From contig JAFZVE010000072.1 of the NCBI GenBank assembly GCA_017617995.1, positions 31,997 to 95,996 of the forward strand: a DNA stretch of 64,000 nt. Reading direction: 5' to 3'. Every line of letters starts with the position of its first letter. Position 1 is the first letter of the stretch. Below are positions 793 to 62,951 of this stretch, one piece after another. The notes beneath the pieces are model-generated. The model did not search any database and was not told the DNA's origin. It worked only from the letters and a program-made list of their open reading frames with translations. A program made the translations under genes and the position numbers. Source of the stretch: Clostridiales bacterium (GTDB lineage Bacteria > Bacillota > Clostridia > Saccharofermentanales > Saccharofermentanaceae).

Positions 793-2535
793 TTACTTAC
801 TTGCCTTATATACTTCGTTGTAGAGATTGACCAGGCCCTCGTAATCGTTAGACTTGATCGTCTCTATGTACGCTTCCCAATCCTTCTCCAGATCCTTCTG
901 TCCGATGATGAACTGCAGAGACCATTCATTGACCGCAGAGATAAGAGGAGTCGCGATCAGGTTGATCTGCTCGTTCTGATCTTCTGTCGGAGCCACACCC
1001 GGAGCAAGTCTCGGGATCTCACGATTCTGAACATCAGAGAATACATAGTGATTCAGTTCATCAGTATAGTTATCTGTCATTTCCGCGAGAGAGTGACCAT
1101 ACCAGAAGTTACCACCGGCATAACCCCACTGCAGACGGATATCCGTCAGAGTGCCCTCGGCATTGTTACCATAGCCCAGACCGCCGCAGCAGTAACCGTC
1201 CTTAAGGACCTTCTTGCCGTCCTTGATCTCATAGTACTCATCCTTCGGGCCCCACTTGCAGAGCGTGTATGCTTCCTCGGAATAGAACAGCCAGTCTACG
1301 AAACGCAGCATCTTGATGAAGTCTTCTTCTCCGAGCTCGTCGAGCGCTCTCTGGGAGATCATGACACCGTTCTCAAGACGGTTGCTGCCTGCTGTAGAGT
1401 AGTTATAGAGCTTCGATCTCGGCGGGATGGTGTAGTACAGTTCGAAATTTCCTTCGCCCAGATTCTCGGCGCACTTACTGTATGTCGTCGCCATCTGGCT
1501 CTGGTTGACGCTCTGGATCACAGTCTCACCGTTATAGAACTTCGTGGTCGCCTGGTCATCTTCCTGCGTAAATGTATCCGGATCGAGGATGCCTTCCTTG
1601 ATAAAAGCATTGACCATCGTCAGGTACTGCTTGTACTCATCTGTTGCCGGGCTGAAATACCACTCGTCTTTGTCGAAGTTGAAGCGCAGGCCGTTGCCCA
1701 TGCCCCAGCCGGCATTAACATCATAGGTCGTTGCGACGACATTCAGGAGGTTACCGCCGTTGCCCTGCGCGGAACCGCCGCCGCACCACAGGTCAGACCA
1801 GATATAATCGGACTCTTTGCACATGCCCTGGGAGACCATGTACGCCTTGACCGTCTTCAGTGCCTCGAGCAGATCTTCCCATGTCCATGTCGCTTCCATA
1901 CCTTCGACATCGACACCGGCCGCCTTAAAGATATCCTGGCGGATAACGAAGGTGTAGTTCAGCGCATTTTGCTCCTTCATGCCCGGGAGCTTGTAGTACT
2001 TACCGTTACTTCTGGTGATGGTACGTACGTCCGGAGCCAGGTCATACTTGTTATAGAAGTCCGTAAAATAGGGCATCTTGTCGACATAGTCGGAGATCGG
2101 AACGATCGCTCCGCCGTCTACAAAAGCACTGTCGTCGTAGATTTTCGGGATGATGTATGCAGACTCACCTGCGTTGATGTCCAGTGTGACGTTGTTCATG
2201 TAGTCACCGGAATCGTAGGAGATGATCTCGAGGTGTACATTCGTCATATCCTCGATCTTCTTGAAGACACCCTCCGTCTTCCATGTGTCCTGCAACGCAT
2301 ACCAGGATGCGTCGCTGAAGAACATCGTGTACGTGACCTTCTCGTCAGAATGGAAAGTCTTCCCGAGACCGTACTCGTATCCATCCTTCTTCTCGGCTTC
2401 AGAAGTCGTCTCGATCTTATCCGGGACCGTAGTCATCTCGGACGCAGTCGTCGATTCATCTTTCGACGCACATGCCGCGAGGGAAAAGATCATTGAGCCA
2501 ACCAGAGCCATGCTCAAAATTTTCTTCATCTTCAT
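793..2535 (-). CDS. ABC transporter extracellular solute-binding lipoprotein (LplA-type, oligosaccharide)
   Basis: ORF 793..2619 trimmed to ATG 2535, which is preceded by GAGGAGG. MKMKKILSMALVGSMIFSLAAC is a lipoprotein signal with a lipobox Cys. At about 580 aa it has the large sugar-binding protein size, and it lies downstream of two permease genes. Confidence 0.9.
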   Translation of the reverse strand: MKMKKILSMALVGSMIFSLAACASKDESTTASEMTTVPDKIETTSEAEKKDGYEYGLGKTFHSDEKVTYTMFFSDASWYALQDTWKTEGVFKKIEDMTNVHLEIISYDSGDYMNNVTLDINAGESAYIIPKIYDDSAFVDGGAIVPISDYVDKMPYFTDFYNKYDLAPDVRTITRSNGKYYKLPGMKEQNALNYTFVIRQDIFKAAGVDVEGMEATWTWEDLLEALKTVKAYMVSQGMCKESDYIWSDLWCGGGSAQGNGGNLLNVVATTYDVNAGWGMGNGLRFNFDKDEWYFSPATDEYKQYLTMVNAFIKEGILDPDTFTQEDDQATTKFYNGETVIQSVNQSQMATTYSKCAENLGEGNFELYYTIPPRSKLYNYSTAGSNRLENGVMISQRALDELGEEDFIKMLRFVDWLFYSEEAYTLCKWGPKDEYYEIKDGKKVLKDGYCCGGLGYGNNAEGTLTDIRLQWGYAGGNFWYGHSLAEMTDNYTDELNHYVFSDVQNREIPRLAPGVAPTEDQNEQINLIATPLISAVNEWSLQFIIGQKDLEKDWEAYIETIKSNDYEGLVNLYNEVYKASK

Positions 2536-2702
2536 AGGTTTCCTCCTCATATAGTGGATGTTTATTTCTGCCCCTCCCCGGAAACGATCCTCTACTTTAC
2601 CGTTCCCGAGAGGTAACATACTGATTTACCGTTGCGGAAGATCTGTCCTCCGCCACTTCCTTTTGGCGGAAAGCCCGCCTTCTTCCGATGTCTTTCGGAA
2701 GA

Positions 2703-3636: not shown

Positions 3637-4590
3637 TTAGAACAGACTGCTGTCCGTGATCTTCTTCGACGCGAAGTTCGCGATCGACAGCAGAACCAGA
3701 TTGATGAGGCCTTCGAAGAGTCCGACGGCCGTCGCATAACTGTAGTTACCTGATCCGATACCCATTCGGTACACATACGTCGATACGATGTCAGCCGAAG
3801 AGTAGATCATCGGATTGTAAAGCAGGAATACCTTTTCAAAAGCACCGCCCGATCCGACGAGTCCGCCGATGTCGAGGATCAGGAGTGTCGTGATCGTCGG
3901 AAGGATACTCGGGATCGTGATATGCCAGACACGCTGGAAATGACCGGCGCCATCGACAGCCGCCGCTTCATACAGATTCGGGTTGATGTTGGCCATCGCG
4001 GCAAGATAGAGGATCGTGCCCCAGCCGAGACCCTGCCAGAGTCCCGAGATCGTAAATATCGCACTGAAGTATTTCGCGACCGCCAGGAACTGGATGCGGG
4101 AACCGCCAAGTGCCTCGAGAAAACCATTGATCGGACCGGATGTCGCAGTCAGTTCCTTGATGATACCGCACACGATAACCATCGAGATGAAGTGCGGAAG
4201 ATAGGACACGGTCTGCACGAACTTCTTCCAGTGAAGATTGCGGATCTCATTGATGAGAAGTGCGAAGATCAGTGTCAGCGGGAAGCGGAAAAGAAGATAT
4301 GTGATGTTCAGGGTCAGTGTATTTCGGAAGGCTCTCCAGAAAGTCTTATCTCTGGTGAACTGCTTGAAATACTTCAGTCCGCTGTTTTCTGAACCGAAGA
4401 TATTACCGCCGGCTCTATATTTTCGGAAAGCGATGATGTTACCGAACATAGGGACATAACGGAATACGATGTAGTACACCACCGGCACCAGCAGCATCAG
4501 ATAGATCTGCCAGTAAAGACCGATATGCCGGCTCATGCTGAAGTGCTTCTTCGAAGGTGTCCACTCCGATTTCATTTGATTACTGCTCAT
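3637..4590 (-). CDS. carbohydrate ABC transporter permease (LplB/YteP, MalF-type)
   Basis: 317 aa and multi-TM, with the EAA-like loop YEAAAVDGAGHFQRVWHITIPSILP. The N-terminus resembles LplB-family permeases. Confidence 0.9.
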   Translation of the reverse strand: MSSNQMKSEWTPSKKHFSMSRHIGLYWQIYLMLLVPVVYYIVFRYVPMFGNIIAFRKYRAGGNIFGSENSGLKYFKQFTRDKTFWRAFRNTLTLNITYLLFRFPLTLIFALLINEIRNLHWKKFVQTVSYLPHFISMVIVCGIIKELTATSGPINGFLEALGGSRIQFLAVAKYFSAIFTISGLWQGLGWGTILYLAAMANINPNLYEAAAVDGAGHFQRVWHITIPSILPTITTLLILDIGGLVGSGGAFEKVFLLYNPMIYSSADIVSTYVYRMGIGSGNYSYATAVGLFEGLINLVLLSIANFASKKITDSSLF

Positions 4591-4922: not shown

Positions 4923-6557
4923 TCAGTGATAGAAGAGCTCTTCCGCCTTCTCGGCCATGCGCGCGCCGAGTTCGCTCTTCCTCTGTGGGTGAAGTTCGAG
5001 CGGCGTAAAAAGATCACGCGCATAGACGACCGCACAGCCGGGCACTTCTTGCTCCGCCTCGCGCTGCTGCTCCTGGATGCTCGTCCAGCCCTCCGGCATC
5101 TCTCCCGAAATCGGGTCCTGATAGTCCGGCATCTCGACAGCAAGGACCGGAATATCGTCCTTAAGAACAGATCTCCATGCATCGATCATACTCGCGAACT
5201 TCTCGTGATACCGCGCGGGCTGCTCCGTATTCGATTCACCCTGATACCACCAGATCCCGCGGAAGGAATAGTCTCTTAAAGGAACGACCGTCGATCGGTA
5301 AAGTGAGGTCGGGATCGTCTGCCCCATCAGGAAAGCCGTCTGCGGACACGCCGCTTCTCTTCCCCACTTTCTCTTCCATTCTCCCTCGAGAAGAACCACT
5401 TCGTCGCCGGATCTCAGATAATACGGATGGCTACTCACGAAGCCGCCGGCGCCGCCCTCGATGATCAGGCGTACCGTGATGACGTTACGCCCTTTTCGGA
5501 GAATCGTACCGTCGAAGGGGTATTTTCTCGGTGGATATCTATACTCGGTCCGACCGACCTGTACACCGTTTATGTACGTCACATCGGCATCGATCAGATC
5601 TCCGACGTATAAGAAAGCATCCGGAACCGGATCATTCTGAAGTTCGAATTCTTTATAGAACCACACCACTCCGCGGTATGGTCTGACTGCTTTTTCCTTC
5701 TCATCCTCTGTGCCGGAATCTCCACCGCAGGAAATCTCCTCAGGCATTTCCGTCGAAGTATCGCTGCCGGACAGAAGTGTTTTTCCGTAAAGGATCGAGG
5801 GCACAGCGAAGCTCTCCGCATCCTCCGGGATCTGTTCCGGTGTCCCGGCGGGAAATTCCGCATCGTCCCCGGACTCGAGTGCTGCGCGCCAGGATGCAAT
5901 ATGCTCTTCTCTTCTTCTCAGGTATTCCTGCACGGCCCCGTCCGGAAGGAAATCCGCGATCACCTCATCAAAATCCCCGAATCCCCGGAGCACCTCGCGC
6001 GGCATCCAGGACTCGATCGTCGATCCTCCCTGTGCGCCGAGCACCAGTCCGACCGGAATCTTCATCTTATCGTAGAGGCGCTTCGCACAGTAAAAACCGG
6101 CGGCACTCATCTGCCCGATCTCCTCCGGTACCGCTCTCGTCCACGGCAGGCGCGGAAGCTCCGCGATCTTATCCTCCGCCAGGCGGAACTGTGGCGTCAC
6201 GCGGTACTGCCGGATATACGGATAGTCAGACGCGTCGACCTCTTCCTGCGATACGTCCAACGTCCGCGAGACCGGAAGCTCCATATTCGACTGACCCGTA
6301 AGGAAGAAAACGTCGCCGAAGCAGACATCATGAAGTACGATCTTCTCACTTCCCGTGATGGTAATCATGACATCCCGTGCTTCTTCCTGTGCCGGTATCT
6401 CCACGGCAAAAGCACTGTCTTTTACTTCTGTCCGATAGGTCCTGCCGAAAAGTTCGACCGTAACTTCGCGCGATTGATCTTCGTGCCCGAAGATCGTGCA
6501 CGTCTTCCCACGCTGAAGGATCATCCCATCTGAGAAAATACCGGCCAGTTCTAACAT
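4923..6557 (-). CDS. sialate O-acetylesterase-like (SASA/DUF303) carbohydrate esterase
   Basis: 544 aa. The motifs GDVFFLTGQSNME and GAQGGSTIESW are typical of this SGNH-type esterase family. Confidence 0.8.
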   Translation of the reverse strand: MLELAGIFSDGMILQRGKTCTIFGHEDQSREVTVELFGRTYRTEVKDSAFAVEIPAQEEARDVMITITGSEKIVLHDVCFGDVFFLTGQSNMELPVSRTLDVSQEEVDASDYPYIRQYRVTPQFRLAEDKIAELPRLPWTRAVPEEIGQMSAAGFYCAKRLYDKMKIPVGLVLGAQGGSTIESWMPREVLRGFGDFDEVIADFLPDGAVQEYLRRREEHIASWRAALESGDDAEFPAGTPEQIPEDAESFAVPSILYGKTLLSGSDTSTEMPEEISCGGDSGTEDEKEKAVRPYRGVVWFYKEFELQNDPVPDAFLYVGDLIDADVTYINGVQVGRTEYRYPPRKYPFDGTILRKGRNVITVRLIIEGGAGGFVSSHPYYLRSGDEVVLLEGEWKRKWGREAACPQTAFLMGQTIPTSLYRSTVVPLRDYSFRGIWWYQGESNTEQPARYHEKFASMIDAWRSVLKDDIPVLAVEMPDYQDPISGEMPEGWTSIQEQQREAEQEVPGCAVVYARDLFTPLELHPQRKSELGARMAEKAEELFYH

Positions 6558-6659
6558 ATGTACCTCGACAAAACCACTTTAAAAGAAAAAGTATCACGAA
6601 CGGAAGTACTCTTTCTGAAGATAGAGTATCACAAACTGAAGTGCTTTTCCATAGTGAGC

Positions 6660-7581: not shown

Positions 7582-7773
7582 AGTTGTGTAGATTATCGGT
7601 ATTATTCGTTGAGATTATCGGTTGACAGTATTTTTATCAAAGTATAGAGTTCTAATGTACGCTTGTGGAGGGGGAATCGCGAACGGAAAACGTGCGGGTC
7701 CACAACGATCACGTGCAGGATTACAGTGCTTTTCCCGACACAAAGACGCAGAAAAATGATTTGTCTAATTCGC

Positions 7774-12187: not shown

Positions 12188-12352
12188 ACCTCTTCTCCTA
12201 CTTCTCCAAAAGCACTTGTCCCCGAATCATTATACCACGCCTTTCGAATACCGCCATGTACGTAGCATTGTCGAGTAAAGACAGGAATGATACAATCTGT
12301 GCTGAGGATGATCCACCATAGGGAACAGCGCATTTGCCGAGGAATATCTTAT

Positions 12353-13735
12353 ATGATTGAACGTTCATTCTTTCATAAACCCACTGCTGAAGAGCATGAA
12401 CGCGTGCTCAAGGAGGCGGAGAAATACTATCTCAGCAGAAAACACACCGCCATCGCGCTCTACATTTTCTCCGGCGCACTTCTTCTCGGTTCCATCGCAG
12501 CACTCATATTCTTACGCGGCCATGCCGAAGAATCGATCCTTTGCATCTTCCTTTCCGTGATCCTCTTTCTCATCGCCATCAGCACTTCCCTGACACCTGC
12601 GACGCAGTTTGAAGATTACAGCAACGAGAAGTACACCGTCGCTCATGTCGAGATCATCGACATCCGGAGCAATCCCAACAGCGTGGTCGAGCCTACCACC
12701 CTCACACTACGTCAAGATGACGGCAGGACTTCCGAGATCCCGATGTCCCACGAACTCAGCAGCGAAGTATACTGCGGACTCAGGGGACTTCTCGCGATCC
12801 TTCCCGGAGAAGACGGACTCACGAAAGCCGGTGCATTTCAATTCGTTCCGGACGACGACTGCAGTGATGAAAGCAGCGCACTCTCTTCGGTGGGAAGTGC
12901 ATTTCACATGAGAGGAATGGACATCCCGAAGGACGTGGAGACCGCATTCTCTAACCGGCTTCGCATCAGCGGAAAAGTGATGATGTATCTTCTTCCGACA
13001 CTCATCGTCGCCGCCGTAGTATTCGGGATCGCATGGTTCGCATCCGGTCGCGACAGTGATTTTTCGTTTCTTATGACCTGCGCCATCGCACCGTTTTTCC
13101 TCTTTCTGTTTACGATGGGAGAAGCGATACTTCCGGTCCACATCTATAAGAACCGCTGGAGCGTGGCACTTTTCATAATGTGGATCTTAATGCCCACACT
13201 GATTCTCCTGACCTCGGTGCTCGGGCTTCGCCTCACCGGAAGCCCGCTTCTTTATCTGCTTCTACTCCCGATCTTCATCATCGTGACGTTGTTCTTCTTC
13301 ATGATGTGCCATCGCGAAAGAGCGGCGGCGCGAGCCTGGCAGGAGTACCGCTGGCTAAAAGAATCGATGGGGCCCGATGCGGAACTGAAGTTCCGTCCGG
13401 TCGATCCCCGGCCACGCGCGATCGATGCCGTAAAGGCCGAGGTCGGAAAGCTCGGCGAGAAGAAATACCGTGTCTACAAAAACTACAGCACCGTGCCTTT
13501 CGTGACGATCCATCTGGGAAACGGAAGCACGCTGTATTTCGCAATTTCCGACAAACAAGCCCAGCAGCTAAAGGAGGGCACGCCGGGCTATGTCTTCCGT
13601 GTCCGGGACACGTTTATGGGTGAAACAACGAACTATTTCTTCTTCGAGGCTTTGCCGGAAGCGGCGCCCGAATCGGAGTCGTCGGATGAGGCCGTCGCGA
13701 AAGATGCGCCGGCTTCCGAAGAAGCGGAATCCTGA
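12353..13735 (+). CDS. hypothetical multi-pass membrane protein
   Basis: The long ORF is trimmed to ATG 12353 after GAGGA. It has several hydrophobic segments and an acidic/Ser-rich tail. I recognise no family. Confidence 0.65.
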   Translation: MIERSFFHKPTAEEHERVLKEAEKYYLSRKHTAIALYIFSGALLLGSIAALIFLRGHAEESILCIFLSVILFLIAISTSLTPATQFEDYSNEKYTVAHVEIIDIRSNPNSVVEPTTLTLRQDDGRTSEIPMSHELSSEVYCGLRGLLAILPGEDGLTKAGAFQFVPDDDCSDESSALSSVGSAFHMRGMDIPKDVETAFSNRLRISGKVMMYLLPTLIVAAVVFGIAWFASGRDSDFSFLMTCAIAPFFLFLFTMGEAILPVHIYKNRWSVALFIMWILMPTLILLTSVLGLRLTGSPLLYLLLLPIFIIVTLFFFMMCHRERAAARAWQEYRWLKESMGPDAELKFRPVDPRPRAIDAVKAEVGKLGEKKYRVYKNYSTVPFVTIHLGNGSTLYFAISDKQAQQLKEGTPGYVFRVRDTFMGETTNYFFFEALPEAAPESESSDEAVAKDAPASEEAES

Positions 13736-14437: not shown

Positions 14438-15163
14438 TTATTTCGATTCGTACGGACGGTCGGTCAGAGGTCTTGTGCAGCCCCAGTCCGCCGCCATTTT
14501 GTTGAAGCCCTTTTTCACCACGGTCTTAAAGAGCACGCCCACCAGAAGGCGGATGTACGCCGGGAAGATCTCCGGTCCCGTGAATGCCTTACATTCCTCT
14601 GATTCAAAAGCACTGTCGCGTCCGTAGATCCGTCCCATCTCACGATAAGGCTTCGCGACGCGATCACGCTGCGTCTCATCAAATCTTATACTAAAGTTGT
14701 CCCCTTTTACAAGAGTTCCGCCGTAATTGCAGCCGAGTTTTCCGGCTAGGATCTTAAGGTACGCTTCGCCGCAGCGGAGCTGCGCGCCTTCGCCGAATCC
14801 GCCCTGCAGGATGAAACTCATCGTGGGCTTCTTTGCGGCCGCGCATTCATCTACAAGTTCGGATGGTTTTTTCGAAACATCTCCGGGAACAGTGCTTTTC
14901 GAGAGGGAGCGTGGTGTCAGGGTCTCGAGAAACTCCACGAGAAGTCCGGGGATACACTCGAAGTAAAGCGGGATCGCGATGAGGATGTGCTCCGCGGTTT
15001 CGAACTTCTCGCGGATCGTGTCCCACTGCCTTCGGTTCGATACTTCGAACTGCTCGAAGGTCGCACCGCTCTCGCGCATGCCTTCCGTGAATTCAGAAAG
15101 AATCTTGTCGGTGTTACTGTATTTCTTGATTCTCGGGCTTCCGTTAATGATCAGTGCATGCAT
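14438..15163 (-). CDS. flavodoxin-like fold NAD(P)H-dependent oxidoreductase
   Basis: Trimmed to ATG 15163 after AGGAGG. MHALIINGSPRIKKYSNTDK is a typical N-terminus of FMN-reductase-like proteins. Confidence 0.75.
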   Translation of the reverse strand: MHALIINGSPRIKKYSNTDKILSEFTEGMRESGATFEQFEVSNRRQWDTIREKFETAEHILIAIPLYFECIPGLLVEFLETLTPRSLSKSTVPGDVSKKPSELVDECAAAKKPTMSFILQGGFGEGAQLRCGEAYLKILAGKLGCNYGGTLVKGDNFSIRFDETQRDRVAKPYREMGRIYGRDSAFESEECKAFTGPEIFPAYIRLLVGVLFKTVVKKGFNKMAADWGCTRPLTDRPYESK

Positions 15164-15861: not shown

Positions 15862-16497
15862 TCAGTACCCGAGCTCGTCGTTCACGAGGATCACGGAGAT
15901 GCGGCCGACGTGCCTGGAATAACGCGTGATCAGGAACTGGCAACAGATGGTGTCCGGCGACTTGCAGTTAAAGCAGGAGCCGGTCTTCGCGCATGGCGTT
16001 TCGAGGCCGAAGCGCTGGGCATTTACAGGAGCAGCGACATTCCGCGCGCGCTTCATGGCGTGGTCGATGTCCTTGCAGACCTTATTCATGCCGACCACGA
16101 AGAGCACATGTTTCGGGCCCTGTGCGATCGCGGAAACGCGGTTGGAGTTGCCGTCGATATTGACCAGGACGCCGTCCTCGGTCATCGCATTTACGCTCGA
16201 AAGGAAGAAATCCGCATCGTAAGCCATAAGCATCGCCGCACGCTTATCCTCGTACGCATCGCGGTCGATGAAATTGTAGTTGCCGTCCTTCAGCGCCTGT
16301 GACAGGCCGATCGCATGCACACTCATGGAACCGCCCATCGAGATCGAGCTGCCCTCCGGAATCAGCTCCAGTGCTTTTGCCAAAGCTTCTTCCTTATTGG
16401 CCGCATAGAAGCCTTCCATATTGCGGGACTTAAGGCCCGCGATCACCTTCTGCGCCAGCAGTGCATTGCGCTTAGTAACCATTTCTTCCATAGTCAA
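15862..16497 (-). CDS. LUD-domain (lactate utilisation protein B/C-like) protein
   Basis: 211 aa. The pattern NALLAQKVIAGLKSRNMEGFYAANKEEALAKALELIPEGSSISMGGSMS, with a C-terminal Cys-rich end, is typical of the YkgG/DUF162 family. Confidence 0.75.
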   Translation of the reverse strand: MTMEEMVTKRNALLAQKVIAGLKSRNMEGFYAANKEEALAKALELIPEGSSISMGGSMSVHAIGLSQALKDGNYNFIDRDAYEDKRAAMLMAYDADFFLSSVNAMTEDGVLVNIDGNSNRVSAIAQGPKHVLFVVGMNKVCKDIDHAMKRARNVAAPVNAQRFGLETPCAKTGSCFNCKSPDTICCQFLITRYSRHVGRISVILVNDELGY

Positions 16498-16554
16498 CCT
16501 CCTGCGTTCCCCGCCGCCCTTTCCGCTCGAAAAGCACTGTCACGGGTTCTTTGT

Positions 16555-18378: not shown

Positions 18379-20208
18379 TTAATCGTAATAGAATACTTTT
18401 CCCTTCGGACGGAAAGGCAGGCGTTTTCCCTTCGGGATCAGGAAAGCGTGCGACCTCTTGACCACGAGGTCATTCTCGATCTCTCCGTCCGTGATGATGA
18501 GGATCGGGCCGTCCTTCGGGAAGGTTTTCGAGGTTTCCAGCAGGTCCACACCGGGCTGTAACACTGTTCCACCACGGCCCTTCACCTCTACTCTCCCGGC
18601 CACATCCTCCGGTGAGAGGTATCCGGCGTCATATGCCTCCGCATCGCAGAATACCACACGCATCTTCGGGACATCTTTCGCGTCGGCATAGCTCGCGATA
18701 GCCCCGAGCGCGATACCGATATCGTGCGCACTCATCGAGCCGGACGTGTCGATGACCACGCCGAAAGTTCTTCCGTCCGTGGCGCTCTCGGAGAGGTAGT
18801 ACCGAGGCCTCGGGATATCCGGGGTGCTGGCCTGACGGCGGCTCGGCCGTGCATACGTCCTGACCTTCTCGACCGGCGCGAAATAATCGTCGAACCACTT
18901 GGCAAGCTCGACATCCCAGGGGATCGGCGGCATCGCAAGTGCGCGGATCTCCTCGATCAGCCCCGCCGGGATGCGTCCGCGCGAGGAGGTCAGATGGTAC
19001 TCGAGGCCCTGCATCAGGGCACTCTTACAGTATTCGTCGAGCGTGACGGTACCGACCATCACATCGCCTTTTCCGATGATATCGCCCTTTCCGTAGCCAC
19101 GGAGGGTCTGAAGCTTTCTCGACACGCGGAGATTCCGCACGAGCTCGTCGTAGATCTCTTCGGCAGACATCCCGGCAAGCGACTCATCGTAGAGCGTCCC
19201 GTTCTGCGGCTGGGTGCCGATGTGCATCTCCGTGAGCCAGCTGTTGATGACGAAGTCGCAGGCCACATTCCAGAGTTCGGGATCTCTACCCGTCCGTCTT
19301 CTCGCATGCCCGAGTCCGGCATGCAGATACTCGTGTGCGAGCACGAACTTCAGTTCATCGGGCTTTAATCCCGCGGCCGGATTCACGTAGATCTCGCCGG
19401 CATCGATGTCGATGGCCGCGATCGAGATCTCGTTTCTCATGCAGAAAAGCGCATCCTCTTTCACCTTAAAATGCGCGGCGAGTCCGCCGAGGAGCGGGTA
19501 GCTGTTGATGAACCACAGCGCCGCGCGCTTCGCCTCGGTGTCGACGTTCTCCGCGGGTCCCTCGTCCGAAGAAGGGGTCCCCGCAGTGCGAAGTACTTTT
19601 CGCACGGAACCTTGCAGTGCCCGAGAAAAGGATTTCTCGAAGTGATCGCGGCTCTGCCAGCGGTACGTGAATTCATCCCAGATCGTGTCGAGCTCGTCGA
19701 TATCGCATTTGTCCGCGCCAAAAACACTGAAGCACGTGTACTGATCGATCTCCTCGCGGTGTTCGCAGAGATATTCGTAGATGGTTTTTTCGTTACGAAG
19801 ACTACCCTTGAAATCGTCAAGGCGCACGACAATATCCGGCTCACCCGGGAACTTCACGTCGTGCAGAAACTTCGTCACGAAGATATCGCACGCGACGTTC
19901 CAGATGCGGATGTCGACGCCCTTGCTGACGTGGTCGGGATTGGCCTGGCCGAGGCAGAGATGGAGCATCAGGTGCGCGAAGATATACGCCCACTCATGCG
20001 GCTCGCGGTGCGCGGTCTTGTTGTACTTGATGTTTCCATGGGGGGTGACACAGGCGGCGCCGGGGAATCCCTTCGCGCACTCGATCGGGCGGAAGTAGAA
20101 ATCCCTTCCGTTCACAAGCGGACCGAAGAGCGCGTGATTCTCGATGATCTCCCGCCCCGCCATGACATTCTGCTCCACTATGGAAGGTTGTTTTGATTTC
20201 TTTCCCAT
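18379..20208 (-). CDS. VWA-domain protein with duplicated DUF2201_N-like putative metallopeptidase domain
   Basis: The C-terminal VWA has a MIDAS-like VVIDTSGSMS. There is an intact HEYLH (VLAHEYLHAGLGH ... WNVACDFVIN) and an upstream degenerate copy (FAHLMLHLCLGQ ... WNVACDIFVT). Confidence 0.8.
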   Translation of the reverse strand: MGKKSKQPSIVEQNVMAGREIIENHALFGPLVNGRDFYFRPIECAKGFPGAACVTPHGNIKYNKTAHREPHEWAYIFAHLMLHLCLGQANPDHVSKGVDIRIWNVACDIFVTKFLHDVKFPGEPDIVVRLDDFKGSLRNEKTIYEYLCEHREEIDQYTCFSVFGADKCDIDELDTIWDEFTYRWQSRDHFEKSFSRALQGSVRKVLRTAGTPSSDEGPAENVDTEAKRAALWFINSYPLLGGLAAHFKVKEDALFCMRNEISIAAIDIDAGEIYVNPAAGLKPDELKFVLAHEYLHAGLGHARRRTGRDPELWNVACDFVINSWLTEMHIGTQPQNGTLYDESLAGMSAEEIYDELVRNLRVSRKLQTLRGYGKGDIIGKGDVMVGTVTLDEYCKSALMQGLEYHLTSSRGRIPAGLIEEIRALAMPPIPWDVELAKWFDDYFAPVEKVRTYARPSRRQASTPDIPRPRYYLSESATDGRTFGVVIDTSGSMSAHDIGIALGAIASYADAKDVPKMRVVFCDAEAYDAGYLSPEDVAGRVEVKGRGGTVLQPGVDLLETSKTFPKDGPILIITDGEIENDLVVKRSHAFLIPKGKRLPFRPKGKVFYYD

Positions 20209-21557: not shown

Positions 21558-21586
21558 CCTTTCGTAATATGTACGGTTTAGGAGGA

Positions 21587-25983: not shown

Positions 25984-25994
25984 CGGGGCAGGCC

Positions 25995-32430: not shown

Positions 32431-32442
32431 GGGACGGAAGAA

Positions 32443-44500: not shown

Positions 44501-44586
44501 ACACCGGCATTACCGATGTCCCGCGCACGCAGAAGGCGCTGTTTCAGTGCTTTTATATCGGAATTACGACAAACACGCTCTTTCAT
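41509..44586 (-). CDS. SNF2-family helicase with N-terminal HhH region, low-complexity inserts and C-terminal zinc ribbon
   Basis: LRGYQIWGVKYIL...LGDEMGLGKTIQ (motif I), DEAHYIKN (II) and the helicase-C motifs QSGGTGLNIQ and AIGRAHRMGQ are all present. The C-terminus is FCRYCGSKIPVDSIFCNQCGKDIR. Confidence 0.9.
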   Translation of the reverse strand: MKERVCRNSDIKALKQRLLRARDIGNAGVRLMSESVADIESAIDAVSKPEGWRKLKTIPVDELNARKAGIRIQLLKDAGYGDMQAICGASTDTLAHIYGIGDQMAARAKEISNAVATEVCNSVKLKISTDHKTEEYSRLVAAVNEHMRAKEILPKCEQVLAMIPSDAENELDKLDCAKNGVKWFFTGGAKKDAANDAYTRLKASADAIDASGLLMQINGTGLVGGRVEGIGSSASSGAGAAGTGAAASGAAGAMPSAKAVLGLAPITIADAWADFAKRPVEYYSILEGIAPDRFDSSEDGYGLSDEIRESVENTPVDLTGLKCTLRGYQIWGVKYILRQKRVLLGDEMGLGKTIQALAAMVSLRNGVPSEKPEPMNPIQQVAAQVQETVQPMAPVAVAQQPSTPEASVQPPTAEMPVAEAPATQQPEEKEEVGPKRFLVICPASVIVNWCREVEAKSDLKSYNMHDANRESAFQAWEKDGGVAVTNFESLENRFRVDDDFDIDMVIVDEAHYIKNIAAKRSQNVLKLCDHTDRILFMTGTPLENRVDEMVGLMGHLQHEVAESAKSVSVTAYADDFKRKISPVYYRRRRNDVLSELPELTDIKEWCDMTQQDEQAYENDVLSGSFMDVRRVSWRNEDYLNTSAKVTRLREIVEDAAEDARKVLVFSFFLDTLEKVKTVFGERCIGVINGAVPVEERQNIVDAFEAAPAGSVLAAQIQSGGTGLNIQSASVVVLCEPQYKPSTENQAIGRAHRMGQTRDVMVHRLLCPDTVDERMLELVEAKQAEFDTFADESSAAERDADLEKSGVDVNQGVIVGETAAAGIAGAAAAVAAGGEGSVAGADGAVASGATAGAGQAAGGAPSSTSASERAELDQASLNKIFADEKARILAKREAQMNAAPVQAQAVPETSVVTTPVAAPAAAVEQVTAMEAAPQAVPQQTIEETVQAAPQVVEAEPQVVVPQVQPAVQEAQPVQQVQPVQAVQPTQETQPVQAAQEPARTVLFCRYCGSKIPVDSIFCNQCGKDIR

Positions 44587-47612: not shown

Positions 47613-48296
47613 TCAGGTTCGGATACTCATCGTGCAGCGGCAGATCGGGAAACTCAGGCACCCCCAGAATCCGCCCATCGATCCCTGCCGGACGACCATC
47701 GGACTTCCGCACTGCGGGCAGATCCGCATGAGACCCTCTTTCACCCGTTGCTCCTGCTCGCCGCGCAGTTTCTCATAGACCTTCTGCGTCATGTAGCAGT
47801 CCGCCAGCGCACGGTGAGCGCCGGCCGTGCTGATTCCGTAGTGGCCCGCCAGACTCCCGAGACCGTATCCTCTTTGACCGGGCAGGCATATCCTCGCCAT
47901 CTGAAGCGTGTCGACATAATCGTTGCCGATCGTCTGTCCCCAGAACTCCGTCGCATCGCGATACAGAAACGGAAGGTCGAACCTGTGGATGTTATGTCCC
48001 ACCAGCACCATTTCTTCTGCAAAAGCACTGAAGTCCTGTAGTACCTGCCGAAATCCCGGGGCATCCGATACCATGTCGTCCGTGATCCCGTTTACATCGG
48101 TCGCGACCTCCGGGATATGCTGACCCGGATTCACAAGCGAGGAAAATTCCTCCACCACTTCGTGATTTCGCACCTTCAATGCGGAGATTTCGATTACTTT
48201 ATCATAATGGCTCGATAGCCCCGTCGTCTCGAGGTCGAACACCACATAGTTTTCTACAAAAGACTTCTTGTTTCTACCAGGCTGCTGCGCTAACAT
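47613..48296 (-). CDS. DnaQ-like 3'-5' exonuclease with C-terminal C4 zinc finger
   Basis: Exo I VVFDLETTGL, Exo II LVGHNIHRFDLPFL and Exo III HRALADCYMT are present. The tail is CPQCGSPMVVRQGSMGGFWGCLSFPIC. Confidence 0.85.
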   Translation of the reverse strand: MLAQQPGRNKKSFVENYVVFDLETTGLSSHYDKVIEISALKVRNHEVVEEFSSLVNPGQHIPEVATDVNGITDDMVSDAPGFRQVLQDFSAFAEEMVLVGHNIHRFDLPFLYRDATEFWGQTIGNDYVDTLQMARICLPGQRGYGLGSLAGHYGISTAGAHRALADCYMTQKVYEKLRGEQEQRVKEGLMRICPQCGSPMVVRQGSMGGFWGCLSFPICRCTMSIRT

Positions 48297-49219: not shown

Positions 49220-49376
49220 ATTCTCTTCCTCCTGTTTTGTGTTTCTCCTTACTGGAAGATTATCATGAAAACCTAACATTTCGCATCGCTATAAATAGCG
49301 ATTTTGAGGTGGGTGGGGGTGCGGATCTGGTCTGATTTTCTCTCTTTTTTCCTTGGATAGGGTTCGCTCTGAGGCT

Positions 49377-49602
49377 CAGTCTGATTTTTGTCTGATGGCA
49401 CCCTCTTCATTAGACAGAAATCAGACTGAAAACTCTCCCAGTCTAACAGAACCGGCTTTTTCAAGATTCGTCTGACCAGAGTGGCGTCCCAGTCAGATAA
49501 ACAGTCTGATACGAGCTCAAATCAGACAGATCGTCAGACTGGCTGACTCCCAGTCTGATATCTGTCTAATGTCACACCCTTTATCAGACAAATATCAGAC
49601 CA
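49377..49602. repeat. hairpin-repeat cluster B2 (same family and same internal spacing as B1)
   Basis: Left arms start at 49377, 49439, 49490 and 49551 (spacing 62/51/61, versus 62/52/61 in B1). The outer hairpins have loops GGCACCCTCTTC and GTCACACCCTTT, in the same orientation as B1. Confidence 0.9.
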
Positions 49603-49723
49603 GGAACATGCTCTTCAGTAATTCAGTCAGATGCACCGCGTATTATCCCGATATTTCTGACTCAGTCACTTTTTCAGTCAATTTCCGGCGCCAAAAGTGA
49701 CAGTTCAGTGAGCAGTCCACCCC

Positions 49724-49762: not shown

Positions 49763-49818
49763 TCATTCTTCTTTTTCTTCGTGAAATGCACTGTAGCCGC
49801 GGCTACCTGCCTCTACTC

Positions 49819-52336: not shown

Positions 52337-54766
52337 CTACTCGTGCGGCAGGAACTCGATGACATCGTCCTCACCCGGCGTGAACTCCATGATATCGTCT
52401 TCTATAGAAGATGTACCACGCTCGGGGACCACGGACCGGATCGCACCGGCTACTGCTTCGTACTCCGCCATCATCACATCGTGCCCGCGCTTGATCGTCG
52501 CCGCATCTCCCGCATTCGCCGCCGCTTCCAGTCCGGCCGCCATCTCACTTAGAGTGGATGCACCGATCATCTTGGAAGTGCTTTTCAAGGCGTGGACATA
52601 GATCGCATAATCGTGCCAGTTCTCCCCGGCAAAACTTGTCCGGATACTCTCGGTCTTCTCTGCATTCTCACTCGCATACTCTGCAAGAAGGGACCGGTAG
52701 AAATTCTCATCTTTCTGGCAGTAGAGAAGTCCGATATCCGGATCGATGCCCGCCGCACGAAGCGTCGCAAATCCATCCTCTGCCGCGTCCGCTTTTTCCG
52801 AGTCTGATTCTTCCGCGTCCGACATCGAAGTACTTCCTCCCGTCTCCTCACGGACACTCTCCACCTTCTCCTGCGGCAGATACCGGATCAGGAGTTTCTC
52901 GAGCGCGAAGCTGTCGATCGGCTTGGTCAGGTAATCCGAGAAACCCTCCGCCAGGTAGTGCTCTTTAGCTCCGACCACCGCATCCGCCGTCAGGCAAACG
53001 ATCGGCGCATCCTTACTCGCGCCGCTTTCAGTCGAACGGATCTTGTGGAGTGCCTCGGTCCCGTCCATCTCCGGCATGCGCTGATCCATGAGGATCACAT
53101 CGTATCTCGTCTTCTCCGCCATCGCCACGGCATTGGCCCCGCTGGTGGACGTATCGATCTGCATCCTCGTATCTTTCAGGAGGTTGACCACTACATTCAG
53201 ATTGATTCTCGTGTCATCGACGATCAGGATCCGGGCATCCGGCGCACGGAAGGATTCCCTGTACGCTCTGGCCTCGAGAAGATTCACTTCGAAACGCTCC
53301 TGGAAATTCCCGACCGGGACCGCCGACAGGATCTTCTGCGGGATCGTGACGGTAAAGACCGACCCCTTCCCGTATTCGCTCTCCACGTCGATCGTGCCGT
53401 GCATCATCTCGAGGAGACGCTGCGTGATGACAAGTCCGAGACCTGTGCCCTCGACGGTACTGTTTCTCTCCATTTCCAGACGCTGGAACCGCTCGAAAAG
53501 CTTCTCCTTATCTTCTTCCCGGATTCCGATTCCCGTATCCTCCACCGTCGCATGAAGGATCAGATATTCATCCGTCATCTTCTCGCCGCGGATCGTCAGC
53601 TTCACCGAGCCCTTCTCGGTATACTTGACCGCATTGTTCAGAATATTCGTCAGGATCTGGCGCACACGCACCTCGTCTCCCTGAAGCTCGTCCGGCAGGT
53701 TCTCATCCACATCGATGATGAAGTCCAGTTTCTTGTCCTGTGCCTTGTACAGCACCATGTTACTGATATTGTTAAGAAGCGAGCCGAGCTTGTACGGCGC
53801 CTCCACCAGATCCATCCGTCCCTCCTCGATCTTGGAAAAGTCGAGGATATCGTTGACGATCGCGAGAAGATTGTGGCCCGCATTCTCGACATCGCCCGCA
53901 TACACGACGATGTTGCGGAGCGTCTCGCGGATATCCTGCGTACTGGACTTCGTGAGGTCCTGCGCCTTTCGTCCTTCACGCATGATCATCTCATTCATGC
54001 CGAGTACCGCATTGATCGGGGTACGGATCTCGTGTGACATATTCGCGAGAAAATCACTTTTGGCGTGGTTGGCACTCTCGGCGCGGATCTTCTCCTCCAT
54101 CAGCTCGCCCTGCATCTTCACAAAAGGACTTACGGTGAAGAGCGCCAGCAGCGCCGCCACGAGAAGCGAGAAAATGAGGATAATGACATAACTGATAATC
54201 GTCGATTTTGTCTGCGCGGAGAGCTGCCCTTCGAACCATTCGACGGAGAAGTCAACGGCCACGATGCCCGCCACGTTTCCGTGCGAATCTTTGACCGGGC
54301 TGTACGCACTGTAGAACTCGCCCCACTGGTCGGTGTAGGGAACCTCGTCTACGGCAGCCTCACCACGTCCTGCTCTTGCGAGCGCATCCGTGTACTCGAC
54401 GCTGTCGCCGTAGCTCGCCGGCGTATACTGGTCGAGGTCCATCGTGAAGATGAAGTTCCCGGGACTCGCTTCCTTGATGCAGTACACATATTCAAGTTCG
54501 ACATTGTCACGGAAAACCGCCAGAGTATCGTATACATTGTTATATTCGGCACTTCCGACCTTATCTTCGTCCAGGCCCCCGAGCACATCGCCGTTGACCG
54601 AGCCCGACGCACAGTTGGCGATATCGAGCATACGCTGCTGGATCGCCTTACGGATACCGACCCTAGCCCTGTAAATAGAAACGGTGCAGAAAAGTATACT
54701 GGAGATCAGGATGATCCCCTCTACCATCAGGATGATCTTGGTGGAAAGATTATTCTTCGCCCCCAC
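52337..54766 (-). CDS. hybrid sensor histidine kinase / response regulator with HPt domain
   Basis: Periplasmic Cache-like domain, H-box SHEIRTPINAVLGMNEMI, ATPase, receiver ILIVDD...LMDQRMPEMDG and C-terminal HPt HALKSTSKMIGA. GTG start follows GAGGGGGG. Confidence 0.9.
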   Translation of the reverse strand: MGAKNNLSTKIILMVEGIILISSILFCTVSIYRARVGIRKAIQQRMLDIANCASGSVNGDVLGGLDEDKVGSAEYNNVYDTLAVFRDNVELEYVYCIKEASPGNFIFTMDLDQYTPASYGDSVEYTDALARAGRGEAAVDEVPYTDQWGEFYSAYSPVKDSHGNVAGIVAVDFSVEWFEGQLSAQTKSTIISYVIILIFSLLVAALLALFTVSPFVKMQGELMEEKIRAESANHAKSDFLANMSHEIRTPINAVLGMNEMIMREGRKAQDLTKSSTQDIRETLRNIVVYAGDVENAGHNLLAIVNDILDFSKIEEGRMDLVEAPYKLGSLLNNISNMVLYKAQDKKLDFIIDVDENLPDELQGDEVRVRQILTNILNNAVKYTEKGSVKLTIRGEKMTDEYLILHATVEDTGIGIREEDKEKLFERFQRLEMERNSTVEGTGLGLVITQRLLEMMHGTIDVESEYGKGSVFTVTIPQKILSAVPVGNFQERFEVNLLEARAYRESFRAPDARILIVDDTRINLNVVVNLLKDTRMQIDTSTSGANAVAMAEKTRYDVILMDQRMPEMDGTEALHKIRSTESGASKDAPIVCLTADAVVGAKEHYLAEGFSDYLTKPIDSFALEKLLIRYLPQEKVESVREETGGSTSMSDAEESDSEKADAAEDGFATLRAAGIDPDIGLLYCQKDENFYRSLLAEYASENAEKTESIRTSFAGENWHDYAIYVHALKSTSKMIGASTLSEMAAGLEAAANAGDAATIKRGHDVMMAEYEAVAGAIRSVVPERGTSSIEDDIMEFTPGEDDVIEFLPHE

Positions 54767-56112: not shown

Positions 56113-56337
56113 GTTGTTTGACCTCCTGTCGTTTTGGTAGCCTCACTATACCTTTTCCCGTCATAACATCTCTACCAACTGGGGCTTGAACTTTGTCAAC
56201 CTGAGGTTGCGATACGTATTTTTCAGGGGTTTTCGCGTTTTTTCGGGCGAGTCGGTCCTTCTCATGGATATTGTATCACTTTCTCCTCCGGAGTGTTTCC
56301 GCCGGGTATTTTTCTTCTCCAAAAGCACTTGCCCGGA

Positions 56338-61291: not shown

Positions 61292-61337
61292 CGATAATTC
61301 ATATGACTTGGAAACGAAATTCCGGTCTCCGCCGGCC

Positions 61338-62951
61338 TTACAGCATCGGCGTGTCGTTGTACTGCTTTCTGTCGCACTTGTTGACGTGGATGAAGACGTT
61401 GTGCAGGAGGTTGACGCTCGTCAGGATGACTTCGCCCTGATTGAGCTTACGGACATGCTTCATCGCATAATCGTCGAGGTGGTTCTCGACAGCGTGGATC
61501 TCGTCGTTAAGCATGAGACGGTGGATCAACATCGTACCGACCTGTCCGAAAAGCACTGGAGACACGTCTTTCGGATTCTGTGTCGTCAGGTAGAGGAACA
61601 CACCCTTACGACGGCCTTCTCTGGCGATCAGCGTCAGACCACCATGGAATTCTCTCTCGGAATATCTGGACTTCGCGTATCTGTGGACCTCATCGATGAA
61701 GAATACGAAGGGGTAAGTATCCTGCTGCGCCATAACGAAATTACTCAACAGGTCGATAACCATGCCGCCGACACCTTCCGCCGCACCGAGTGCAGATGTA
61801 TCGATGTACAGACTCTCCTCCGGACGGTGAACGAAATCATCCACAACATCGAGGAGATTATTCATACTCGGGTCATTGGAGAAGAACGTCAGGAATCGAG
61901 TGTTCGTCATCTGATACTGGATCTTCTTAACAAAAGAAGCATTGGCGTTCGCCTTCAGCGCATCGTAACGGAAACGGAAGTTATAGTCATTATCACGATC
62001 CGGCTCGCAGACTGCCTCCGCCTGGATCTGCTCCGGCAGAAGCTCGATATTGAAGTCGGTATCTTCATTGGAAACAGAAGCGAGATTCTCCTGAACTTCG
62101 TCGATATTCGCACCGACCTTATAGTAGTAGGAATCGTCGCCGATCTTCTTCATGAAGCGAAGCGAAGTAATCGCCTCTGCCAGAACCGCGCCCTGGCCGC
62201 TGTTCTCCGCCTCGAAAAGTTTCTCCCACTGTTCCATCGTGATCTTACTCGGAGAGATCGTCGTATCGATACCCAGAGTCAGCTTCATGACCTCATCGTC
62301 AGAAAACGCGTGGCGGTACTCACCGGTCGGATCGATGATCAGTGCCTTTCTTCTGGTACGGATCAATTTATCGAGGATCGCGAGCGCCGTAGTAGACTTA
62401 CCACTGTTCGTCGCACCGATACACATCAGGTGACGGTTAAAGAGCGTACTCGGCTTGAGTGACACCGAAGCCTGCGCGGAACGGTTAAGATATGTCGCGA
62501 ATGACGGGAGCGGCTGCTCGTCGTCCTGAGAGAACTCGAGCGACTGGATGAACAGCTGATAAGTAACATCCGGAGCAATGTAGACTTTATCGGTGATACC
62601 GAGCGTCTTAAATCCCGCAAGCTGGAAACGGTTGGAGTTCGGAGTCAGAACCGCGAGAGTATCGATGCAGATCTCGTGATAGCCCTGCGCCTTCCCATCG
62701 GCCTGCTCGGAGACATTCTTTCTTGAAGACTTATTCTCGAAAACCTCTCCGAGGAACACACCTACGGTCGATTCGACCAGTACGAAGTAGTTGATGGTGT
62801 TCGGGAGAAATGAACTGCTGAAATTGCTTCTGTTCGTCATCGCTTCGACGTTTTCGATCTGTGCGATACAGCTGCTTCGATAAACCTGCGTTACTTTTCC
62901 CAGATAATAGTCTTGGATGTTCAGCCCTTCAAATAGAGATTCGAGTGTCAT
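61338..62951 (-). CDS. HerA/FtsK-like (DUF87-type) ATPase
   Basis: Walker A IGATNSGKST, Walker B VFFIDEVHRY and the C-terminal LTTQNPKDVSPVLFGQVGTMLIHRL are present. An N-terminal barrel-like region and a GGAGG RBS are also present. Confidence 0.8.
   Translation of the reverse strand: MTLESLFEGLNIQDYYLGKVTQVYRSSCIAQIENVEAMTNRSNFSSSFLPNTINYFVLVESTVGVFLGEVFENKSSRKNVSEQADGKAQGYHEICIDTLAVLTPNSNRFQLAGFKTLGITDKVYIAPDVTYQLFIQSLEFSQDDEQPLPSFATYLNRSAQASVSLKPSTLFNRHLMCIGATNSGKSTTALAILDKLIRTRRKALIIDPTGEYRHAFSDDEVMKLTLGIDTTISPSKITMEQWEKLFEAENSGQGAVLAEAITSLRFMKKIGDDSYYYKVGANIDEVQENLASVSNEDTDFNIELLPEQIQAEAVCEPDRDNDYNFRFRYDALKANANASFVKKIQYQMTNTRFLTFFSNDPSMNNLLDVVDDFVHRPEESLYIDTSALGAAEGVGGMVIDLLSNFVMAQQDTYPFVFFIDEVHRYAKSRYSEREFHGGLTLIAREGRRKGVFLYLTTQNPKDVSPVLFGQVGTMLIHRLMLNDEIHAVENHLDDYAMKHVRKLNQGEVILTSVNLLHNVFIHVNKCDRKQYNDTPML

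Follow-up and report, generated by a model that had tools for sequence, protein, structure and literature searches.

The word AAAAGCACT as a possible DNA uptake signal in an uncultured lineage of rumen Clostridia

Uptake-signal words, 9-12 nt long, are a standard example of molecular drive and of how species barriers control gene exchange. The DUS of Neisseriaceae is GCCGTCTGAA, with its dialects, and has ComP as receptor; the USS of Pasteurellaceae is AAGTGCGGT / ACAAGCGGT; a further receptor, ComN, is predicted. DUS and USS typically include close inverted pairs that form terminators. In Bacillus and Streptococcus DNA is taken up without sequence preference, and we know of no case in which sequence-specific uptake has been shown in Gram-positive bacteria. 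Among other short chromosomal words, the known Chi and KOPS words are G-rich, modestly enriched and strongly co-oriented with replication, and the parS, Noc, SlmA and MatP systems have tens of sites per genome. A survey of 2025 still restricts uptake signals to Pasteurellaceae and Neisseriaceae. In two further sources the word HIP1 is described as 15-300-fold over-represented in genes and spacers, its function being debated and linked to methyltransferases (PMC5861425, PMC4390886). In a preprint of 2024 transformation was improved by HIP1 in a manner dependent on homology and methylation (10.1101/2024.09.10.611283).

The word AAAAGCACT was noticed in a sequence-only reading of a 64-kb window, by which the whole stretch of DNA analysed is meant, on a scaffold of a ruminant-gut metagenome from an uncultured Clostridia lineage. 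Full-text matches to the word were primers only, in keeping with the earlier remark that a word of this sequence is not known. The follow-up covered about 82 kb of the source genome (the extended scaffold, window included) and 13-21-kb pieces of relatives, which were rumen Clostridia MAGs; gene coordinates are the depositor's gene calls on a near-identical scaffold. As the best reading it is proposed, with a probability of about 45%, that AAAAGCACT may be a DUS/USS-like uptake or recombination-drive signal of a Gram-positive lineage, uptake and transformability being inferred from the analysis of sequence.

Over-representation of the word and its extended site

An exact string search of both strands returned 21 copies of AAAAGCACT in the window, 12 on the plus and 9 on the minus strand, with the same counts and coordinates as first reported. 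AAAWGCACT was found 27 times by the same kind of search; all six variant sites listed earlier exist and the orientation tally of 17:10 is correct, one coordinate (26089) being wrong by 10 and now given as 26079. AAAAGCACT is the top-ranked 9-mer of the window, where it occurs once per 3 kb. Its spread is uneven: the left flank of the window (9.2 kb) holds no site and the right flank (9 kb) only one. GAAGAA/CTTCTT words are also abundant in this genome.

Dinucleotide shuffles of the window contained 0.31 copies of AAAAGCACT on average (maximum 2), and Markov models of orders 0-4 predicted 0.29-1.01. The observed enrichment over these 0.3-1.0 expected copies is thus 20-70-fold. Orders 6-7 expect 9.8 and 18.1 copies. 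The sub-words AAAAGCAC and AAAGCACT, present 23 and 22 times in the window, are nearly all contributed by the motif itself, and for this reason the high orders seemingly 'explain' the count and a maximal-order Markov model is uninformative for AAAAGCACT. The mismatch spectrum is steep, with 21 perfect copies against about 0.5 expected, 34 with one mismatch against 13.1 and 154 with two mismatches against 150, the mismatches that are tolerated being concentrated at positions 4, 5, 6 and 8. A spectrum of this form is predicted by graded recognition preference together with decay.

The core was observed to be embedded in a weaker asymmetric site of about 24 bp, composed of T-9, C-7, C-4, G-1, AAAWGCAC, T, K and a C-rich tail, outside which conservation drops to background. 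The flank preferences are shared by intergenic and coding sites and are therefore part of the site itself, with no codon effect. AAAAGCACT is non-palindromic, being unlike its own reverse complement, and the flanks are asymmetric. The word could be read as the core of a protein-recognition site of this length, for which no binding has been shown.

Scatter over genes and spacers without polarity

Nine of the 21 copies are intergenic, against about 9% of non-coding DNA. Two of them are flanked by divergent genes (6640-6648, minus strand; 56321-56329, plus) and one by convergent genes, with a stop codon 13 nt before it (32665-32673, plus). The start codon of a GDSL lipase gene follows 21 nt downstream of the copy at 12208-12216 (plus), and that at 40474-40482 (plus) lies amid a cluster of unrelated hairpin repeats. 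The others are found at 7725-7733 and 23330-23338 on the minus strand and at 16530-16538 and 28468-28476 on the plus strand.

The 12 coding copies lie in unrelated genes, six sense and six antisense, and use five of the six frames. Antisense copies, all on the plus strand, correspond to SAF in a sugar-binding protein gene (2122-2130; gene 793-2535, minus), a SASA esterase gene (6408-6416), a flavoprotein gene (14606-14614; gene 14438-15163, minus) and an RNase_T-type exonuclease gene (48021-48029), and to VLF in an SNF2 helicase gene (41582-41590) and a HerA/DUF87-like ATPase gene (61549-61557). Sense copies, all on the minus strand, give KST in the same flavoprotein gene (14891-14899) and in the HPt region of a hybrid histidine kinase gene (52577-52585), and KAL in a LUD-domain gene (16370-16378), in the gene 27004-28419 (minus) at 27797-27805 and in the SNF2 helicase gene (44546-44554). 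These peptide readings agree with those first given, from which the sense copy in a BlaR1-like gene (25737-25745, minus), read as EKH (LEKHS), was missing.

The variant AAATGCACT is antisense in the gene 12353-13735 (plus) at 12896-12904 on the minus strand. Its plus-strand occurrences lie in the BlaR1-like gene (25573-25581), a BlaI-like gene (26079-26087; gene 25995-26366, minus) and the SNF2 helicase gene (43168-43176), and in spacers at 40909-40917 and 49784-49792. AAAAGCACC, in which the core AAAAGCAC lacks the final T, occurs on the plus strand within a permease gene (3838-3846; gene 3637-4590, minus) and within the gene 27004-28419 (27992-28000).

On the extended scaffold the coding copies number 7 sense and 6 antisense, and spacers hold 9 of 22 sites. 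The spacer enrichment is 3-5-fold; in relatives 30 of 86 sites fall in spacers, which make up 12% of the DNA (p = 4e-8). Uptake sequences are described likewise in the 2025 survey, in genes in many frames and enriched in spacers. No inverted pairs of AAAAGCACT were found at close range, the nearest pair being 160 bp apart; no overlap or association with predicted terminators was seen, nor any fixed placement with respect to promoters or terminators, and there were no Rfam matches.

The GC skew is negative across the whole window, which places it on one replichore. Relative to the GC-skew strand, the core pooled over five loci has a count of 29 for the G-rich and 38 for the C-rich strand, and a 75% bias is rejected both ways (p = 3e-8 and 8e-4); the 12:9 ratio in the window had already been taken as no strong polarity. 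This lack of replication-strand polarity argues against a Chi- or KOPS-type word. A Chi-type AddAB recombination hotspot, or a replication-oriented architecture word of KOPS/SRS type, would suit a short over-represented genic word in a window on a single replichore with uniformly negative skew. Besides the missing polarity, the enrichment is far beyond that of known Chi sites and the word is A/T-rich where the known Chi/KOPS words are G-rich, and this already disfavoured explanation retains very little credence. Of the likenesses suggested at the outset, those to Chi and to architecture words are disfavoured by the polarity result, and that to uptake sequences survives the tests run.

Sharing, dialects and turnover by substitution

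At least eight related contigs carry the word at equal or higher abundance, up to one per 1.2 kb. L048 has 17 and L056 16 copies per 20.7 kb (one per 1.2-1.3 kb). In L013, L019, L048 and L056 it ranks first among dispersed 8-mers, and its abundance is similar in L006, L058 and L059; these are independent assemblies. A dialect is observed in L016, with 10 copies of AAATGCAC against 3 of AAAAGCAC, and C or T is accepted at position 9 in L019, L006 and L056. The word is lacking in the pieces of the close relatives L017, L052 and L057, and it is found 0-2 times per 20 kb in non-carriers that resemble the carriers in GC content and codon usage. The string 'CGAAA[AG]' is frequent even among the non-carriers.

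In colinear three-way orthologue alignments of the window, L013 and L048, sites were seen to be gained and lost by base substitution, and no insertions or indels were found at lineage-specific copies. The changes are both synonymous and non-synonymous. L048 has the copy at 6408, which one G>A change has abolished in L013 (SVF); the copy at 14891 is in L048 and not in L013, and that at 14606 is in neither. The copy at 16370 is in L048, and L013 has CCGAGCGCT with mostly synonymous differences (position 16371, GCA AAA GCA CTG in the window, GCC CGA GCG CTG in L013). At 25573 L013 has AAAAGCACT where the window has the variant, a synonymous GCA/GCT difference, and at one site four residues are replaced (LKDTCF in the window, LLEKHF in L013). 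The copy at 25737 is kept in L013, that at 27797 in L006 and that at 28468 in L006 and L048. Together with the use of five of six frames, both orientations and spacers, this turnover upholds the initial view that the word is preserved as DNA and not for an encoded peptide.

A by-product origin, whether from composition or codon usage, from a repeated peptide or from the conserved tip of a MITE/REP element, could draw on the richness of the genome in GAAGAA/CTTCTT and on 'CGAAA[AG]' being common outside the carriers as well. It is refuted at the level tested and hardly to be entertained: orders 0-4 expect at most one copy, the frames and strands used are diverse, lineage-specific copies are colinear without insertions, conservation beyond the site is at background with no Rfam match, and non-carriers of similar composition nearly lack the word. 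A mobile REP/MITE repeat was rejected by itself: the conserved stretch spans no more than about 24 bp, genes hold over half of the copies, and lineage-specific copies show no indels.

Between the window and L013, five of nine motif sites are conserved, which is not clearly above the baseline of 0.40 for random 9-mers. The alignable intergenic copies are conserved in 4 of 4 cases (baseline 0.41), namely 6640, also kept in L048, 7725, 23330 and 16530, the last with identical flanks. This result, the spacer enrichment and the resemblance of the asymmetric site to a protein footprint would be expected if an abundant nucleoid-associated or architectural protein bound the word and each copy were selected for chromosome organisation or global regulation. 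Such an explanation is improbable, since parS, Noc, SlmA and MatP sites number tens per genome, not one per 1-3 kb, and there is no consistent promoter or terminator position; moreover, sister species live without the word, and the genic copies turn over fast and cost amino-acid changes, which is hard to square with selection per site.

Substitution turnover and dialects bear also on a methylation-linked origin, in which an orphan methyltransferase, or one linked to restriction, would target the word or a part of it. The word would accumulate through a bias of repair or recombination linked to methylation, as has been proposed for cyanobacterial GCGATCGC, without any specific uptake receptor. 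The abundance of HIP1, its methyltransferase link and its effect on transformation speak for such an origin, drive via point changes suits the turnover, and species dialects could also stem from changes of methyltransferase specificity. It is nevertheless considered unlikely: AAAAGCACT is a non-palindrome in an asymmetric site, unlike the palindromic HIPs and most targets of orphan methyltransferases, the enriched one-mismatch variants extend over four positions, and no methyltransferase gene is present in the 82 kb examined. A repair bias of the very-short-patch type hits one position and, by inference, could give about 2-3-fold, not 20-70-fold.

The uptake reading and known systems

According to the uptake reading, the site would serve an uncultured clade of rumen Clostridia as a 'self' signal, specific to the lineage and working like DUS/USS. 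Some part of the uptake machinery, with a competence or type IV pilus protein as the most plausible candidate, would bind preferentially to double-stranded DNA with the word, so that fragments bearing it would enter the cell and recombine with the chromosome more often. Mutations creating or improving the word would then spread via molecular drive until balanced by mutational decay and protein-coding cost. Binding of the word by an uptake protein, transformability of the hosts and biased uptake as the driving force are inferred; no competence genes were found among the annotated genes of about 82 kb of source genome and the 13-21-kb pieces of relatives. The absence of close inverted pairs and of an association with terminators, a site conservation not clearly above baseline, the uneven density and the lack of any known Gram-positive precedent also stand against the uptake reading.

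Somewhat more tentative is the wider claim that this may be the first signal for sequence-specific uptake of DNA ('self-recognition') outside Proteobacteria, by which a clade marks its chromosome with AAAAGCACT about once per 1-3 kb, in dialects AAATGCAC and C/T at position 9, and favours uptake and recombination of word-bearing DNA. If true, the competence or type IV pilus apparatus of a Gram-positive lineage must contain a word-specific receptor that is so far unknown, which would point to a new kind of DNA receptor; natural transformation would be active among uncultured rumen bacteria, and a Gram-positive gut instance would mean that the uptake-signal phenomenon evolves repeatedly. If uptake is not the cause, an asymmetric word with dialects and this enrichment would remain an unexplained genome-shaping force on a par with HIP1. 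The word may also be used as a marker for binning and for the detection of foreign islands in these MAGs, and in the design of DNA to transform them.

Among known systems, REP/MITE elements are longer imperfect palindromes, intergenic and present or absent by insertion, features which AAAAGCACT does not have. Chi (RecBCD/AddAB) and KOPS/SRS are likewise short over-represented genic words read as DNA, and differ in their strong co-orientation with replication and modest enrichment. HIP1 is similar in being a hyper-abundant word of octamer scale in genes and spacers, with lineage variants, an unresolved function and recent links to transformation; it is a palindrome embedded in methyltransferase targets, whereas AAAAGCACT and its extended site are asymmetric and no methyltransferase link has been shown. 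DUS/USS belong to proteobacteria, the Neisseriaceae and Pasteurellaceae, whereas the host of AAAAGCACT is an uncultured Clostridia lineage of Gram-positive type; the sequences are unrelated, only the pentamer AGTGC being common to the Haemophilus USS, probably by chance. DUS/USS also have inverted-repeat pairs acting as terminators, a competent host, pilus genes, a word-specific receptor and biased uptake, of which the pairs and the association with terminators are absent and the remainder not demonstrated for AAAAGCACT. The likeness to DUS/USS extends to a hugely over-represented core of 9-10 nt with weaker flanks at about one copy per 1-3 kb, to both orientations without replication or transcription polarity, to genic copies in many frames with spacer enrichment, and to species-level dialects shared by related species with outgroups lacking the word. 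As in DUS/USS, copies are born by point substitution, not by element insertion, and perfect copies greatly exceed near-matches relative to expectation.

Abundance and extent of the word

An exact search of the window returned 21 copies of the 9-mer AAAAGCACT (reverse complement AGTGCTTTT), 12 on the plus strand and 9 on the minus strand, all at the positions counted by eye in the sequence-only reading; its variant sites were also placed correctly, with the sole exception of one that starts at 26079 and not at 26089. The degenerate form AAAWGCACT is present in 27 copies. AAAAGCACT is the commonest 9-mer of the window, the expected number being 0.29-1.01 under Markov models of order 0-4, and shuffles preserving dinucleotides contained 0.31 copies on average and 2 at most. 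A maximal-order Markov test had been proposed as a possible refutation. When run, orders 6-7 'predicted' the observed count; the test is uninformative because the sub-words AAAAGCAC (23 copies) and AAAGCACT (22 copies) are made by the motif itself, nearly all of them being motif copies, and it is therefore unusable as a refutation.

The mismatch spectrum was steep: 21 sites matched perfectly where about 0.5 were expected, 34 had one mismatch (13.1 expected) and 154 had two (150 expected). The single mismatches gathered at positions 4, 5, 6 and 8, from which it was inferred that a repair bias acting at a single position cannot alone raise the frequency of a 9-mer 20-70-fold when mismatches are tolerated at four positions. 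The spacing of the copies (CV 0.74) was not significantly more even than random (p = 0.09).

When 80 AAAWGCAC sites, drawn from the source and from four relatives, were aligned, flank preferences emerged that were weaker than the core but clear. Upstream, these consisted of T at -9 (60%), C at -7 (60%), T at -6, C at -4 (56%) and G at -1 (60%); downstream, the core was followed by T, less often C, then by G/T, with a C-rich stretch at +12 to +14. Intergenic (n = 37) and coding (n = 68) sites, analysed separately, both showed this pattern, which is therefore part of the site and not a codon artefact. The drop of conservation to background past about 24 bp excluded a longer repeat element.

Placement, strand and turnover

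The proteins of the window matched exactly those of a 134-kb scaffold from a ruminant gastrointestinal metagenome (ENA ERZ28653445, XIEF21-1_SAMN15830093 scaffold_260), from which the window differs by one SNP and one additional 54-bp tandem repeat unit. The retrievable pieces of this scaffold, joined to 82 kb and carrying the depositor's gene calls, contained 22 exact copies of the word, 9 of them intergenic against roughly 9% of non-coding DNA. The 13 coding copies were spread over unrelated genes, 7 of them in sense and 6 in antisense orientation, and used five of the six frames; the word is free of stop codons in all six. The peptides SAF, VLF, KST and KAL, read from the coding copies in the sequence-only reading, were all correct. 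The copies were not consistently placed with respect to predicted promoters or terminators, and a role as either was rejected; Rfam and tRNA searches gave zero matches.

Four of the 12 coding copies in the window fall in DNA-processing genes (41509-44586, 47613-48296 and 61338-62951), two in the SNF2 helicase gene and one each in those of an RNase_T-type exonuclease and a HerA/DUF87-like ATPase. Together, the three genes occupy about 9% of the coding sequence (binomial test applied post hoc, p = 0.02). The uptake sequences of Neisseriaceae (DUS) and Pasteurellaceae (USS) are reported to be biased toward genome-maintenance genes.

The GC skew was negative throughout, which places the window on one replichore. 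When the sites of the source and of four relatives were combined, 29 cores fell on the G-rich strand and 38 on the C-rich one, and a 75% strand bias could be rejected either way (p = 3e-8 and 8e-4). This lack of polarity rules out a Chi- or KOPS-type word.

Two metagenome loci of relatives, L013 (87% nucleotide identity) and L048 (about 80%), were syntenic with the window. Five of the nine alignable window sites were kept in L013, namely all four intergenic sites and one coding site; as the baseline conservation of a random 9-mer between the two was 0.40, extra conservation of the word sites was not demonstrable. The three-way comparison showed gains and losses in every lineage within alignments that were always colinear, from which it follows that substitutions in the DNA create and remove the word, with some cost for the proteins. 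At 6408, the window and L048 encode SAF, and L013 encodes SVF through one G>A change. At 16371, GCA AAA GCA CTG of the window and L048 corresponds to GCC CGA GCG CTG in L013, the only effect on the protein being K to R; at 9026, L013 has CTCGAAAAGCACT (LLEKHF) and the window has LKDTCF. The inference that the DNA word and not a peptide is kept is thus supported by turnover at the level of substitutions, by the use of five of six frames and by the occurrence of both orientations.

In the same comparison, the block at 18500-27000, encoding a DUF2201/MoxR-type ATPase, a 524-aa protein and BlaR1/BlaI-like proteins and including the tandem repeat, was present in L013 and missing in L048 (1500-1900) between thyA and a 471-aa gene, which indicates an indel of ~8.5 kb. 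The block holds only two exact word copies.

Relatives, dialects and neighbouring repeats

With the thymidylate synthase of the window as query, matches were obtained only in uncultured rumen and gut Clostridia MAGs, labelled Clostridiales, Mogibacterium, Anaerovoracaceae and Lachnospiraceae, the best being RGIG7868 (94%). A second search, based on an alignment of the neighbouring GDSL lipase, gave 80 metagenome loci. Seven loci of relatives, from separate assemblies and with partly different gene neighbourhoods, carried many copies of AAAAGCAC: 9 in 20.9 kb examined (L013), 12 in 13.6 kb (L019), 12 in 13.0 kb (L006), 17 in 20.7 kb (L048), 16 in 20.7 kb (L056), 8 in 5.6 kb (L058) and 7 in 7.7 kb (L059). 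The word was the top dispersed 8-mer in L013, L019, L048 and L056, and C or T was tolerated at position 9 in L019, L006 and L056. Among the relatives, 30 of 86 copies were intergenic against 12% of intergenic DNA (p = 4e-8). In a single-gene tree the carriers fell within one subclade with a patchy distribution, the close relatives L017, L052 and L057 having 0-1 copies. The carrier MAGs include RGIG7868 (JAFZLF01), RGIG6040 (JAFWSW01) and, with T at position 4, RGIG10171 (JAGCVX01); RGIG7838 (JAFZKB01), Tb.RUG.474 (JAEEWG01) and Firm_16 (LVAV01) are relatives without the word. No competence genes were found in a Pfam scan of ten flank proteins of L019 and L016.

A species-level variant, or dialect, was recognised in L016, in which AAATGCAC occurs 10 times against 3 copies of AAAAGCAC, with the same flanks; the dialects are distinguished by A or T at position 4. 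The candidates CTTTGC[AC]C (L026), TCGAAAAC (L020/L031) and CGAAAGCA (L063/L069) remain tentative only, because the 8-mer scan had a background noise of about 6-7 copies per 20 kb. In L026 (Anaerovoracaceae ruminal_MAG_332), the different word pair CTTTGCAC and CTTTGCCC has 12 copies in 20.9 kb on both strands, which may represent a further dialect with TGCAC in common, each 8-mer alone being at noise level. Three candidates were rejected: ACCCAGTA (L014/L015) stems from repeats of paralogous genes, all of them on the same strand, AATGCACC (L078) is a clustered local repeat, and GCCGTTCA is the product of a ~64-bp tandem array (L050 13376-13644, L051 7969-8237) that holds it twice per 64-bp unit. 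The sequence (C)TCGAAA[AG], which forms the left portion of the extended site, was common in the non-carriers or weak carriers L049, L050, L020 and L066 (27-38 copies per 16-21 kb), even with the full word rare; this may reflect codon usage, the remnant of a dialect or an alternative one.

The ~64-bp array lies near the same lipase neighbourhood and is reminiscent of the 54-bp tandem repeat of the window (26636-26975; 6.3 units, 98% identity), each unit of which holds its own 12-bp inverted repeat (GACCTCTTGTAT / ATACAAGAGGTC). The latter array is situated at the ends of two called ORFs without Pfam matches, and its additional unit relative to scaffold_260 shows that the copy number is polymorphic. 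The L006 contig terminates within this array. A 5.8-kb tract (window 26872-32652, L006 7214-12990) is common to both at 98% identity; L006 is otherwise distinct, coming from another sample and species, with thyA 78% and a phosphodiesterase gene 72% identical and a different gene order. This suggests a recent transfer between two word-carrying species. The tract boundary did not clearly coincide with a word site. Two intergenic regions (40370-40596 and 49376-49605) each contain two copies, 174-175 bp apart, of a ~52-nt hairpin (CAGTCTGATwTyTGTCwrATG-GCACCCyTTy-ATyAGACArAwATCAGACTG), and the AAAAGCACT copy at 40474 sits between two hairpins. The next most enriched dispersed 9-mer was ATCAGACTG (9 copies against 0.5 expected).

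Comparison with known systems

The main rival explanation is a word tied to methylation, like the cyanobacterial iterated palindrome HIP1; no methylation data are available. HIP1 is similarly hyper-abundant and still unexplained, its function being debated (PMC5861425, PMC4390886), and is now linked to transformation efficiency (10.1101/2024.09.10.611283). HIP1 is, however, palindromic, whereas the present word is asymmetric, and the inference drawn above on a single-position repair bias also speaks against this rival.

The favoured reading is that AAAAGCACT is a DUS/USS-like signal, which would be kept by biased uptake and recombination; it is put forward by analogy, without competence-gene, pilus, methylation or experimental data. 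It is preferred because, of the systems described so far, we know only the uptake sequences in Neisseriaceae and Pasteurellaceae to combine these features: extreme over-representation, a density of about one copy per 1-3 kb, both orientations, location within genes together with enrichment in spacers, a site that is asymmetric and longer than the core, dialects that differ between species, turnover through substitution and a steep drop from perfect to near matches. We know of no sequence-specific uptake in Gram-positive bacteria, and a literature search for uptake sequences in Firmicutes found none; full-text queries with AAAAGCACT and AGTGCTTTT yielded nothing beyond primers and unrelated sequences. 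The DUS/USS-like reading makes a testable prediction, namely sequence-specific transformation in an uncultured Clostridia clade.

A 2025 survey still regards such signals as restricted to two families, Neisseriaceae and Pasteurellaceae, and describes for DUS and USS the same placement rules as were found here. DUS and USS typically also form inverted pairs that act as terminators; such pairs are absent here. AGTGCTTTT has the pentamer AGTGC in common with the Haemophilus USS AAGTGCGGT, which is probably a coincidence. The word does not belong to the known DUS/USS families, from which it differs in host as well as in sequence, but its behaviour is like theirs.
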